IMG/VR virus record: IMGVR_UViG_3300039372_000053
Reading direction: 5' to 3' (one strand)
Length of the DNA: 5,483 nucleotides
Source of the DNA: a virus
Taxonomy: Duplodnaviria > Heunggongvirae > Uroviricota > Caudoviricetes
Shown here piece after piece: positions 3,184-5,483 of the stretch. A program made the position numbers and the translations under genes. The notes beneath the pieces are model-generated. The model ran no database searches, was not told where the DNA came from, and worked only from the letters and a program-made list of their open reading frames with translations. The first letter of the stretch is position 1, and every line of letters starts with the position of its first letter.

Positions 3184-3651
3184 TCATCGAAGGCATTGCG
3201 TCCTAATGTATTCCTGAAGCGTTCTCAGTGCTGTTTGGTCGCGGATAATTCCGTCCCGGATATCGAGAACGTTTCGTCCAGCAACTGGAGAGAGTTCGAC
3301 GGTGGCATCATTGCCCATGCCGGAGGCGCTGGAGGTTTCGGCTGAGGATGGCACAGGGCATTTTCCTTTGACGAGCACCCTGCCACCATTATCAAGCTTC
3401 CGCAGAAGAGCATCATTTTCAGCTTTCGCATCAGCTAACTCCTTCGTGTATTTTGCATCGAGCGCAGCAACATCACGCTGACGCATCTGCATGTCAGTAA
3501 TTGCCGCGTTCGCCAGCTTCAGTTCTCTGACATTTTTGTCGCGCTGGGCTTTGTAGGTAATGGCGTTATCGCGGTAATGATTAACAGCCCATGACAGGCA
3601 GACGATGGTGCAGATAACCAGAGTATAAATAATCGCTGCGACTCTGCTCAC
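3184..3651 (-). CDS. Rz: Rz i-spanin (inner-membrane spanin subunit), start GTG at 3651..3649
   Basis: From the GTG the protein reads [40 protein letters not shown]…[30 protein letters not shown]…, near-identical in its N-terminal two thirds to recalled lambda Rz ([82 protein letters not shown]…). The track start (TTG at 3666) is 5 codons too long. GTG overlaps the endolysin TGA stop (GTGA), and GGGGGA lies 7 nt upstream. Confidence 0.9.
3225..3431 (-). CDS. Rz1: Rz1 o-spanin (outer-membrane lipoprotein), embedded in the +1 frame of Rz
   Basis: [21 protein letters not shown]… has a lipoprotein signal and lipobox (VAGC), followed by a proline-rich mature part ([11 protein letters not shown]). 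This matches recalled lambda Rz1 (MLKLKMMLCVMMLPLVVVGC…PPPPPAW). It is fully embedded in Rz, and GAAGGAG lies 7 nt upstream of the ATG. Confidence 0.85.
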
Positions 3652-4181
3652 TGATCTATCCCCCAACAGGCTAATGCGCTTTCCTGGTCACGACGAATAA
3701 CCTGTCCATAGCAGTTATTTGAACGTATGCGGCAATCGCGCCCACCATCTTTTATCCACCAGCGAATCGCCTCGCATGCGCCCTTACGATCACCGGCATT
3801 CAGCCGCTTATAAAACGTCGACGGGAAACACTTACCGGGGCCAATGTTATAGGGACAGAATGACGCTATACCCGCTTTCTGTGGTTCGGTCAGTGGTACT
3901 TTAATATTGCGCTCCACCCATGCCAGCGCCTTATCACGTTCAATAGCGTTAACCTGGTCGCATTTTTCCTTCGACAGCCTCATTCCCGGTATGACGGGCT
4001 TACCATCCACCATTGTGGCACCACGACAGATGGTCCATATACCGGAACCATCGCGGTATGCCGTTGTGTGGTTACCTTCTTTTTCATCCAGAAACTGGTC
4101 GAGAATATCAGGCGCAGGCGCACCGACGGCAATCAGTGCCAGAACGGCAGCCGACAGGCCGTATCTGATTTTTGCGTTCAT
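3648..4181 (-). CDS. SAR endolysin (T4-type lysozyme, glycoside hydrolase family 24) with N-terminal signal-anchor-release domain, 177 aa
   Basis: The N-terminus [27 protein letters not shown] is a Gly/Ala-rich weakly hydrophobic segment typical of SAR domains. It is followed by the lysozyme catalytic region [20 protein letters not shown]. The organisation resembles phage 21 R and E. coli prophage lysozymes (RrrD/RrrQ type). It lies between the holin and Rz. Confidence 0.9.
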
Positions 4182-4286
4182 GGATATTTATCAGGATTTA
4201 TCGGTTTCTGAACCCTGGATATGTTTATCTGTCCCGGCCTGTTGAATCAGGCAAGGAATAGTTAAATACAATAGAGAGGATTGTTT

Positions 4287-4559
4287 ATGGACAATAGCAC
4301 CATTTCTCTACAGGAGTTGCTCGACTGCATTTCCAAGCTTCGGGATGATGTAAATGCCCTTACTGTCGCATTTTCATATCTGGCATTCTCAATTCCCAAG
4401 GAACAAATGCAACCAACACTGGCATCGCTCCAGCTTGAATCACTCAACCCCAAATGGTCCCAGCAACAACAAAATTCTTTCAAGTGGCTGGCGGTATTAC
4501 TGGAAGAAAAATATGCTGGTGAAATTACCATTTCGGCGGAGTCTTCAGTGAACCAGTAA
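4287..4559 (+). CDS. Candidate small protein (90 aa) antisense to the late/lysis operon; function unknown
   Basis: ATG at 4287 is preceded by AGAGAGGA (4272..4279) with a 7-nt spacer. The track's TTG start at 4281 is less likely. The translation MDNSTISLQELLDCISKLRDDVNALTVAFSYLAFSIPKEQMQ…WLAVLLEEKYAGEITISAESSVNQ has ordinary helical-protein composition, whereas the competing minus-strand frame is Cys/Ser-rich with rare codons. A weak hairpin plus T4 follows at 4602..4628. Its 3' end overlaps the convergent ORF 4525..4869 by 35 nt. No homolog is recognised. Confidence 0.4.
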   Translation: MDNSTISLQELLDCISKLRDDVNALTVAFSYLAFSIPKEQMQPTLASLQLESLNPKWSQQQQNSFKWLAVLLEEKYAGEITISAESSVNQ

Positions 4560-4869
4560 TTCTTCCCGGCAGTTTTCCTTTGTAGGTTATCCACACACCC
4601 TGCGCCTCTAAAATTATGGGGCGCTTTTCCGGTGACTGCTCATCCCCTTCACATAACCCGGCAGCAACATCCAGGAAGACCTGTCTGATGCTCCTTCTGG
4701 CTGCTGCCTCATAAAACCCCAGCGCGGCACCTTCAACACGGTCCAGCGAGATGTCCAGGTCAAAAATTTCACCGTCAAAGCGTTTTTTGTCCCGTAACGC
4801 TAAAGTTACCGTAACTTTATTCTCAAAATTGCGGATCCCTTTCACAATCAGTTCATAGTTTTGAATCAT
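4525..4869 (-). CDS. Hypothetical protein (114 aa) translationally coupled to the holin; possibly DUF1327 / YdfR-like by size and position
   Basis: ATG at 4869 lies 4 nt after the holin TAA stop (4876..4874). GGGGAGAG lies 7 nt upstream, inside the holin 3' end. The protein is soluble-looking and acidic (MIQNYELIVKGIRNFENKVTVTLALRDKKRFDGEIFDLD…). From memory, the Qin prophage has a DUF1327 gene (ydfR) between its holin and lysozyme; sequence identity is not verified. Confidence 0.7.
   Translation of the reverse strand: MIQNYELIVKGIRNFENKVTVTLALRDKKRFDGEIFDLDISLDRVEGAALGFYEAAARRSIRQVFLDVAAGLCEGDEQSPEKRPIILEAQGVWITYKGKLPGRITGSLKTPPKW
4602..4628 (+). terminator. Weak candidate terminator downstream of the antisense ORF
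   Basis: 5-bp stem gcgcc (4602..4606) pairs with ggcgc (4620..4624) around a 13-nt loop, followed by tttt (4625..4628). The stem is short and the loop long, so this is marginal. Confidence 0.25.
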
Positions 4870-4873
4870 TGAA

Positions 4874-5089
4874 TTACTCTCCCCGCGCAGCCTTACGACG
4901 GTCCTCTCTGATTTTGAAATACAGGTTAGTCAGATATGTCAGGAAGCCCAGAACCAGACTCCCCAGTACACCAATCGCAGCCCACTGTGACGGACTGACC
5001 TGATCAAGCCACTGTAAAAACCAGTAGCCAGCACTGCCTGCGGAGGTGCCGTAGGCAATGCCCGTTGAAATTTTATCCATGGATTTCAT
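4874..5089 (-). CDS. Class II holin, phage 21 S21-type pinholin (71 aa) with dual-start motif
   Basis: [71 protein letters not shown] matches recalled S21 / EssD. It has two transmembrane segments, and Met1-Lys-Ser-Met4 gives the antiholin/holin dual start. GGAGGTGAGG lies immediately upstream. The track's extension to 5188 is an open-frame artefact. Confidence 0.9.
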
Positions 5090-5226
5090 AGCCTCACCTC
5101 CGCAGCGAACGGATGGCGTAGTTATAAGGGGAGCGAAAAAGAAAGAATGCGCGATTGCGCAATATGGTAACGTCAGGGTATTATCCACTGGCTGAATAGA
5201 TCACTTCACGTTTTTTGTTCCTTGCC

Positions 5227-5254
5227 GCCCGTATCCATATGCGGGCTTTTTTTT
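5227..5254 (+). terminator. Rho-independent terminator (plus strand): 8-bp stem, 4-nt loop, T8 tract
   Basis: gcccgtat (5227..5234) pairs with atgcgggc (5239..5246) around loop ccat, including one G-U pair. It is followed by tttttttt (5247..5254). Confidence 0.6.
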
Positions 5255-5260
5255 GCATGT

Positions 5261-5290
5261 AAAAAGGCCCCAACACATGTGCGTGGGGCC
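5261..5290 (-). terminator. Rho-independent terminator (minus strand), candidate late-operon tR'-like terminator upstream of the holin
   Basis: GC-rich stem ggcccca (5266..5272) pairs with tggggcc (5284..5290) around an 11-nt loop. On the minus strand it is followed by TTTTT (5265..5261). It lies about 170 bp upstream of the holin start in the direction of late transcription. Confidence 0.55.
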
Positions 5291-5483
5291 TGAGAGTATA
5301 CATGGTTTCAGTCAACTGCATGGTGCCGGGTGCCTCCCGGTGAATTCAGTACCAGCACCTGAATCCGCGATTATCCCATATACCTACTCGCTGATTGCCC
5401 CTCCGCACAGGGGGATTCACCATGCCAGTTTCTTTTAACAAACTCCCCGCAAACCAGACAACAGTCAACCGCCTGAATTGTGA

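Follow-up and report, generated by a model that had tools for sequence, protein, structure and literature searches.

A 5,483-nt stretch of DNA from the virus record IMGVR_UViG_3300039372_000053, which we refer to here as the window, carries two hairpins that face one another on opposite strands just upstream of a holin gene. An earlier note on this DNA described them as a pair of back-to-back intrinsic terminators, and suggested that the one on the minus strand is positioned like the lambdoid tR' on which the Q antiterminator acts, and that the one on the plus strand stops transcription running antisense through the holin region. The question that this locus raises is which transcripts the two hairpins end. 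We propose that the locus very probably consists of two convergent sRNA genes at a 'moron' site between the phage tRNA genes and the holin gene, and that each of the terminators is the 3' end of one of these sRNAs. The features concerned are collected in Table 1.

Table 1. Features of the window discussed in the text (positions are those of the window)
Feature	Position	Strand	Details and basis
Phage lysozyme gene	3648-4181	-	
YdfR/DUF1327 gene	4525-4869	-	
S21-type class II holin gene, dual start MKSM	4874-5089	-	Pfam PF04971 E = 8.6e-36; RefSeq annotation
Recombination joint, holin module / sRNA-pair module	5126-5149	.	Homology breakpoints in other phages and relatives
Promoter-like site	5155-5184	+	-35 TTGCGC 5155-5160, 18-nt spacer, -10 TATTAT 5179-5184; register with AgvB/AsxR
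Predicted ~65-nt sRNA, EcOnc08/21/42 family (EPEC E2348C_1409.E2348C_1408.IGR)	5190-5254	+	Model match; antisense to late operon
Conserved ACUUCACG box (5203-5210) and U-rich stretch (5211-5219) in sRNA body	5203-5219	+	Variant alignment
Seed CCUUGCC, immediately 5' of terminator stem	5220-5226	+	Alignment of 12 variants
Intrinsic terminator of plus-strand sRNA	5227-5254	+	8-bp stem and 4-nt loop 5227-5246, U8 5247-5254
6-bp spacer GCATGT between T8 and A5 runs	5255-5260	.	Direct sequence reading
STnc100 sRNA gene (EHEC EcOnc05/EcOnc06 type)	5255-5454	-	Rfam RF02076 covariance-model match
STnc100 intrinsic terminator	5261-5290	-	Interrupted GC stem 5290->5266, U5 5265->5261

Two facing hairpins upstream of the holin gene

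Both hairpins are found where the earlier note had placed them, with T8 following the stem on the plus strand and T5 following the GC stem on the minus strand. When folded as RNA, the plus-strand stem-loop (GCCCGTAT-CCAT-ATGCGGGC, 5227-5246) reaches -12.8 kcal/mol (z = -2.8), and only one of 200 shuffled sequences folds as well, while the minus-strand hairpin (GGCCCCACGCACAUGUGUUGGGGCC, 5290->5266) reaches -19.1 kcal/mol (z = -4.85), which is equalled by none of 200 shuffles. The geometry is somewhat different from that described, however, as the distance from stem to stem is 19 bp (5247-5265) rather than 12 bp, and the two hairpins do not share a central A/T tract, GCATGT separating the T8 run from the A5 run.

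Neither hairpin has a U tract when the opposite strand is read, and each is a terminator for one strand alone. Read on the minus strand, the plus-strand hairpin folds at -8.6 kcal/mol (z = -0.8) and is followed by GGCAAGG; read on the plus strand, the minus-strand hairpin folds at -16.1 kcal/mol (z = -3.0) and is followed by UGAGAG. A bidirectional intrinsic terminator, in which one hairpin serves both strands, is therefore rejected in favor of two hairpins, each with a U tract on one strand.

A simple scan of the window for terminators returns nine terminator-like sites, as against 5.6 +/- 2.7 in shuffled sequences. The plus-strand hairpin is among these sites, and the minus-strand hairpin is overlooked because its stem is interrupted. 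From the densities of sites in the scan we estimate, roughly, that a facing pair within about 40 bp would arise by chance in about one window in 10. The terminator pattern alone is weak evidence, and the case rests on homology and conservation. We judge the pair to be real because the minus-strand hairpin is the terminal helix of an Rfam family and the plus-strand hairpin is conserved in relatives, as described below. Both hairpins are retained, with differing stems, in all 17 distinct EcOnc08-type variants.

A candidate third terminator on the minus strand, at 5148-5161, is not counted, as it folds at -7.5 kcal/mol (z = -1.6) and the EHEC copy of the same site folds no better than shuffled sequences. 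The site is a palindrome (GCGC-N4-GCGC) with a T-rich run after it on the minus strand; it overlaps the -35 hexamer of the plus-strand sRNA, is conserved in relatives and might be a protein-binding site.

The minus-strand hairpin and STnc100

Judged by its match to a covariance model, the minus-strand terminator forms the end of STnc100, a known prophage sRNA that is encoded here downstream of the phage tRNA genes. The Rfam model RF02076 is matched over its full length (model positions 1-206 of 206) with 139 bits (E = 1.2e-31), far above the gathering score of 47 bits, and the match is oriented in the sense of the late operon. The hairpin (5266-5290) corresponds to the last helix of the RF02076 model, after which the consensus reads UUUaUaugc; UUUUU is aligned at 5261-5265. 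A full-length match, a terminal terminator helix and a context in the late region of a prophage are thus all features that the window copy shares with the family. It differs in its terminator stem, which is GGCCCCA.../...UGGGGCC in the window and commonly GCCCCUC/GAGGGGC elsewhere. The stems of minus-strand terminators in relatives likewise differ in sequence and all of them pair (AGCCCCUC/GAGGGGCU, GGCUCCU/AGGAGCC and UACCCCUC/GAGGGGUA).

The northern probes for EcOnc05 and EcOnc06 (Tree 2014) match the STnc100 stretch of the window, and the sizes of these EHEC homologues on northern blots are about 222 nt for EcOnc05 and about 177 nt for EcOnc06 (PMC4104026). In Stx2 phages STnc100 sits 75 nt downstream of stx2 (PMC12370729), and a relationship to PasD has been reported (Zhu, Shabalina and Storz 2026; bioRxiv 10.64898/2026.05.13.724894).

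A TTGACT hexamer is situated on the minus strand at 5463-5468, 8 nt upstream of the start of the Rfam match. If this hexamer were a -35 element, STnc100 would start near 5435 and would be about 177 nt long, as reported for EcOnc06; a good -10 element is not apparent. STnc100 also occurs in tandem copies in some prophages and viral contigs, with four copies in L017 (2265-3380) and two in CE10 (L006, 2619-3296). In EPEC prophage PP6 (E2348/69; L008, 612-2297) the 5' part of STnc100 is cut by ISEc13, leaving a match of 75.5 bits, and the partner sRNA detected by RIL-seq is intact.

The late operon and the position of tR'

On its minus strand the window carries the late gene region of a lambdoid prophage of E. 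coli. The S21-type holin is the first lysis gene downstream of the terminator pair, and Rz/Rz1, a Rha-type gene and the small terminase are found further along the late operon on the same strand. Between the Rha-type gene and the Rz region there is a run of N (masked bases) at about 2829-2860. The segment 5000-5483 is present at 100% identity in several E. coli chromosomes, and is 99.4% identical in phage PhiR49_2 and 98.6% identical in phage vB_EcoS-611R1; over 4801-5483, PhiR49_2 and the window are 99.3% identical. Past the right end of the window these matching records carry two to three tRNA genes and then the Q antiterminator gene.

The boundary between the holin and the sRNA pair bears the marks of recombination. 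The holin module (5000-5126) is 96% identical to other phages, with divergence beyond 5126, and homology to esterase-carrying relatives begins at 5142-5149. On the evidence of these breakpoints, the window is a compact recombinant that lacks the esterase gene usual at this place and has the sRNA pair next to the S21-type holin.

Late transcription has to pass the minus-strand terminator, which lies in the sense of the late operon upstream of the holin, and to this extent the comparison with tR' holds. The position is nevertheless not that of tR', as the hairpin ends STnc100 beyond the tRNA genes, about 1 kb downstream of Q, and is not the first terminator after PR'. Phage Nil3 has its annotated tR' immediately behind q, ahead of the tRNAs. 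In PhiR49_2 (L002) the Q stop at 5252 is followed by a terminator-like site (5163-5183), the tRNAs (4532-4781), a terminator (4500-4517) and STnc100 (4256-4455). The first of these sites, AAACCCGCCGCGAGCGGGTTT + T4 on the minus strand, is 69 nt after the Q stop and is likely to be tR'; the second, GGCTCGCTTTTGCGGGCC + T8 on the minus strand, is strongly terminator-like and situated directly after the last tRNA-Arg, before STnc100. Because separate terminator-like sites follow Q and the tRNAs in the same prophage type, we reject the identification of the minus-strand hairpin as tR'. In Stx phages the end of the short RNA from PR' has been mapped 258 nt from PR', and a separate start appears to drive the tRNAs (Sy et al. 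2020, PMC7547250).

There is nonetheless a likeness to lambda tR' and its 6S RNA, and to StxS (PMC7547250), in that the STnc100 terminator would also be a late-operon intrinsic terminator that Q-modified polymerase must override and that ends a short Hfq-associated RNA made in lysogens. Unlike these, it is preceded by at least two terminator-like sites as well as by the tRNA genes.

The proposal that the plus-strand terminator is a stop for antisense transcription through the holin region is not required by the arrangement, as the hairpin closes a self-contained sRNA gene (see below). The predicted promoter and start of this gene (5155-5184 and about 5190) are situated between the holin start codon at 5089 and the terminator, and transcription would therefore start there rather than traverse the holin. 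The candidate source of antisense transcripts is an ORF of 92 aa on the plus strand (4281-4559) that overlaps the 3' end of ydfR. The product matches the phage protein family phrog_2411 (unknown function; E = 4.7e-59) and has no match in Pfam, and CFT073 carries the ORF as an annotated hypothetical protein. As the scan finds no plus-strand terminator-like site between this ORF and 5227, read-through from it would also stop at the plus-strand terminator; nothing requires such read-through. In relatives, moreover, no holin is close to the pair, which precedes an esterase gene or follows stx2B, and the plus-strand hairpin is for this reason tied to the sRNA module and not to the holin. Taking these observations together with the positions of tR' in Nil3 and PhiR49_2, we consider it very unlikely that the minus-strand hairpin is a tR' acted on by Q and the plus-strand hairpin a stop for regulated antisense transcription through the lysis genes, notwithstanding the passage of late transcription through the former and the annotated ORF behind the latter.

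The plus-strand RNA and its relatives

Our preferred reading, in which the plus-strand terminator is the end of an sRNA, depends on the identity of the sequence that precedes it. The similarities described here identify this RNA as a divergent member of a family that has been reported but not characterised, EcOnc08/21/42 of EHEC, with which the EPEC RNA E2348C_1409.E2348C_1408.IGR has been equated by its authors (PMC8550237). A model made from EHEC-type copies matches 5191-5253 of the window with 57.7 bits (E = 4.5e-11), and the stretch of the predicted ~65-nt RNA folds at -22.7 kcal/mol (z = -4.9). The family is not represented among the Rfam models. The 3' part of the EPEC sRNA as printed (CACGUUUUGUUGUUAAUCCUUGCGCCCGCGUCUCCCUGCGCGGGCUUUUUUU; PMC8550237, fig. 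S5) differs very little from the copies in E2348/69 and EHEC to which the window aligns, and is the same element. By blastn with 5092-5256, the exact sequence is found in 97 of 5426 complete E. coli genomes (~2%), and a version of 5142/5149-5253 that is 72-77% identical is found in about 865 further records, including O157:H7.

The window and the EHEC and EPEC RNAs share the boxes GCUGAA, ACUUCACGUUUU and UUCCUUGCC, the seed, the terminator with its U tract, the promoter-like block and convergence with STnc100. They differ over the RNA body, where identity is about 75%, and in the stem, which has 8 bp and a 4-nt loop in the window and 8 bp and a 6-nt loop in the EHEC type. Among 12 aligned variants CCTTGCC is identical in 10, the exceptions being L097, which has CTTGCCA in this place and CCTTGCC 3 bases upstream, and L017, which has TGTGCAG; CTTCAC is unchanged in all 12. 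The seed CCUUGCC is the complement of GGCAAGG, the target motif from RIL-seq in EPEC, where this motif occurs in cfa, tir, pcm and the yagU IGR, with GGCAGGG in emrA (PMC8550237). In the same data the homologue is always the second RNA in chimeras, its partners being cfa, dppA, emrA, tir and others, with which it pairs by way of motifs like GGCAAGG (PMC8550237).

Binding of Hfq by the EcOnc08/21/42 family has been reported from crosslinking in EHEC (PMC4104026) and from RIL-seq in EPEC (PMC8550237). In Sakai Sp4, the Hfq crosslinking peaks of EcOnc05 (+, 1179806-1179914) and EcOnc08 (-, 1179938-1180010) are back to back (PMC4104026). The first of these peaks coincides with STnc100 at 1179745-1179935, and the second with the homologue of window 5191-5253 at 1179936-1180004. 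The U-rich stretch next to the plus-strand terminator would fit the usual Hfq-binding module.

The plus-strand hairpin itself is conserved in relatives. In a model-guided alignment of 28 hits comprising 11 distinct sequences, a small sample for which the alignment was fitted to the model, pairing is kept in 98.8% of cells compared with 91.5% in shuffles, a value that none of 500 shuffles reaches. Two pairs have compensatory changes on both sides, the covariation score is 0.248 as against 0.104, and pairing falls to 24-59% when the partner columns are slid. The pair counts are taken from this alignment instead of one made with MAFFT, in which the window's hairpin had its 3' arm misaligned.

Promoter-like site and length of the plus-strand RNA

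The plus-strand RNA has been reported to be about 271 nt long in EHEC, by northern blotting (PMC4104026), and 182 nt, by estimate, in EPEC (PMC8550237). The window cannot encode this long form (182-271 nt), as the sequence shared with relatives of the esterase type begins at 5142-5149, no more than 106-113 nt from the 3' end.

A plausible start for a shorter RNA comes from comparison with AgvB and AsxR, the 5' ends of which have been mapped as primary by RACE (Tree et al. 2014, PMC4104026). Over the 70 nt that precede them, AgvB, AsxR and the EcOnc08-type RNAs can be aligned in register, with a common block up to and including TTGCGC, 18 nt and then a -10 element that is TAAAAT in AgvB and AsxR and TATTAT in the EcOnc08 type and the window, followed by 5-6 nt to the RNA start. 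By position, we infer that the plus-strand RNA starts near 5190 and is about 65 nt long. The promoter hexamers are weak, with three of six consensus matches in TTGCGC, and in a consensus promoter scan the site at 5155-5184 is below threshold and goes unreported.

It is possible, although we put this forward as a tentative proposal, that the plus-strand RNA is a ~65-nt primary transcript from a promoter block of the AgvB/AsxR type and not only the 3' end of a 182-271-nt RNA, and that the slot adjacent to STnc100 is a modular cassette site; the proposal includes that a head-on promoter close to the holin could affect lysis timing and that the RNA could imitate one Spot 42 seed. If so, RNAs in the slot by STnc100 would have their promoter and their convergent partner in common, while their bodies, seeds and terminators could be exchanged, and the promoter of the esterase-less variant would lie about 70-95 bp from the holin start codon, head-on with respect to Q-dependent late transcription. 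The observations on this locus also suggest that RNAs of the EcOnc08/42 type could exist in a short primary form, transcribed from a promoter like that of AgvB.

The absence of the long form also raises the alternative that the plus-strand element is a dead remnant, in which the true promoter and two thirds of a ~271-nt RNA, from its 5' end, were lost with the esterase gene in a deletion that left an inert terminator and tail. The probe that gave the ~271-nt northern signal in EHEC is positioned upstream of the predicted start of the short RNA, and this, the end of esterase-type homology at 5142-5149 and the restriction of the exact arrangement to the 97 genomes given above are what speaks for a remnant. 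However, everything from the -35 element through U8 is retained with the seed and boxes intact, and the changes in the hairpin relative to the EHEC type are compensatory and not disruptive. The EcOnc08 Hfq peak fits the short form, and the variant is at least 98.6% identical in PhiR49_2 and vB_EcoS-611R1. A dead remnant is on balance very unlikely.

Several positions of the plus-strand stem are G-U pairs on the plus strand, the equivalents of which on the minus strand are C-A mismatches, and these point to the plus strand as the functional strand of the hairpin. Together with the weak fold on the minus strand and the lack of a U tract there, they make it scarcely credible that the hairpin serves the late mRNA of the minus strand, for instance in its processing or stability, instead of acting as a plus-strand terminator, even though it is situated inside the late transcript, 138 nt upstream of the holin start.

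Convergent sRNA pairs and other sRNAs in related prophages

The convergent arrangement of the two sRNA genes has already been described for lambdoid prophages of pathogenic E. coli and is mostly an ordinary feature. According to Tree et al. 2014 (Mol Cell), the sequence that follows the Q-antiterminated PR' 'carried convergent sRNA genes' in Sp3, 4, 5, 9, 10, 11, 15 and 17, their example being AsxR/EcOnc27, 3' of stx2B (PMC4104026). The window resembles these pairs in the slot, which follows Q, PR' and the tRNAs or a moron and precedes the next gene of the late operon, and in having one sRNA in the late sense and one antisense, with the terminators back to back; in EHEC both RNAs of such pairs are Hfq-bound. 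It differs in that the esterase/DUF6645 ORF is absent and the pair directly adjoins the S21-type holin, and the stems and part of the body of the plus-strand sRNA differ from the EHEC copies. In the relatives compared, what differs is the neighbor of the pair on the low-coordinate side; the terminator pair is located between STnc100 and a SASA/DUF6645 esterase gene (EC4115, CE10, E2348/69 PP6 and Sakai Sp4), and in others the facing terminators are downstream of stx2B. Counted by motif among 133 STnc100-core sites, nearly all of them in viral contigs fetched with the STnc100 core, 33 have a partner of the EcOnc08 type and 7 one of the AgvB/AsxR type. In CFT073 (L130, 3747-4297) the antisense slot by the STnc100 terminator is occupied not by an sRNA but by a protein gene, iraM (an anti-adapter), and no plus-strand terminator is obvious there.

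Three other sRNA groups were compared with the plus-strand RNA. AgvB (L115, 1734-1795) and AsxR (L124, 5808-5860) adjoin STnc100 on the opposite strand, as located by the Rfam models (L115, 1541-1733, and L124, 5862-6067, respectively). These RNAs (RF02702, RF02703) share with the window RNA the slot against STnc100, an upstream block with TTGCGC and its spacing, and a similar predicted length of about 55-65 nt, but their bodies and terminators are unrelated to it. Membership is rejected, as the AgvB model gives 11.9 bits against a threshold of 56 (E = 4.2) and the AsxR model gives no match; nothing in this analysis points to sponge activity of the window RNA.

PasA and PasC are EPEC sRNAs that are antisense and just upstream of a holin (PMC8550237). 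Kinship with them is also rejected, as comparison of the PasA locus (E2348/69, L004) with the window matches only the holin and a PasD/STnc100-like piece, and no match runs across PasA. By this comparison PasA and PasC are positional analogues of the plus-strand sRNA and not its kin.

The third comparison is with Spot 42, with which the plus-strand sRNA family shares (UU)ACUUCACGU, a match of 11 nt for the EHEC type and of 9 nt for the window (5203-5211), the window variant additionally sharing GGCUGAAUA (5190-5198, +). The local alignment of the EHEC type to Spot 42 beats 500 of 500 shuffles. Allowing for about 100 sRNAs, however, we estimate roughly p = 0.2 for an 11-mer shared with some E. 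coli sRNA, and the Rfam Spot 42 model, run on 113-296 nt, gives no match at E <= 10. Homology to Spot 42 is rejected on these grounds, and the sharing of words could be seed mimicry or chance.

Model and implications for annotation

In the model that we favor, STnc100 would end on the minus strand at the GC hairpin and U5, and on the plus strand an RNA of ~65 nt of the EcOnc08/21/42 type would start near 5190, bear CCUUGCC and end at the hairpin and U8. A hairpin with a U tract is a typical module of Hfq-dependent sRNAs (Otaka 2011, cited in PMC4104026), and in each of the two sRNAs it may double as the Hfq-binding 3' module. By analogy with other lambdoid phages, the paired terminators would in the lysogen hold two constitutive transcripts apart, presumably including those of the copy in the window, and would keep STnc100 transcription out of the holin and lysozyme genes. 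On induction, Q-modified RNA polymerase from PR' would read through tR', the tRNA terminator and the STnc100 terminator into the lysis genes. Because terminator-like sites after Q and after tRNA-Arg precede that of STnc100, the lysis genes in these phages may lie behind at least three terminators for Q to override.

The main bearing of these observations is on annotation, and will be no surprise to a specialist in phage sRNAs. The stretch between the tRNA genes and the holin comprises two genes for sRNAs of the Hfq type and not a plain regulatory spacer or tR', and the convergent sRNA pair of EHEC and EPEC is extended to a compact variant present in about 2% of complete E. coli genomes and two sequenced phages. 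Genome records miss both sRNA genes or overwrite them with spurious ORFs. PhiR49_2 has a 46-aa 'hypothetical protein' annotated over both terminators (window 5181-5321, minus strand), and RefSeq has a pseudo-ORF inside STnc100 on the plus strand (window ~5277-5435); both look spurious.
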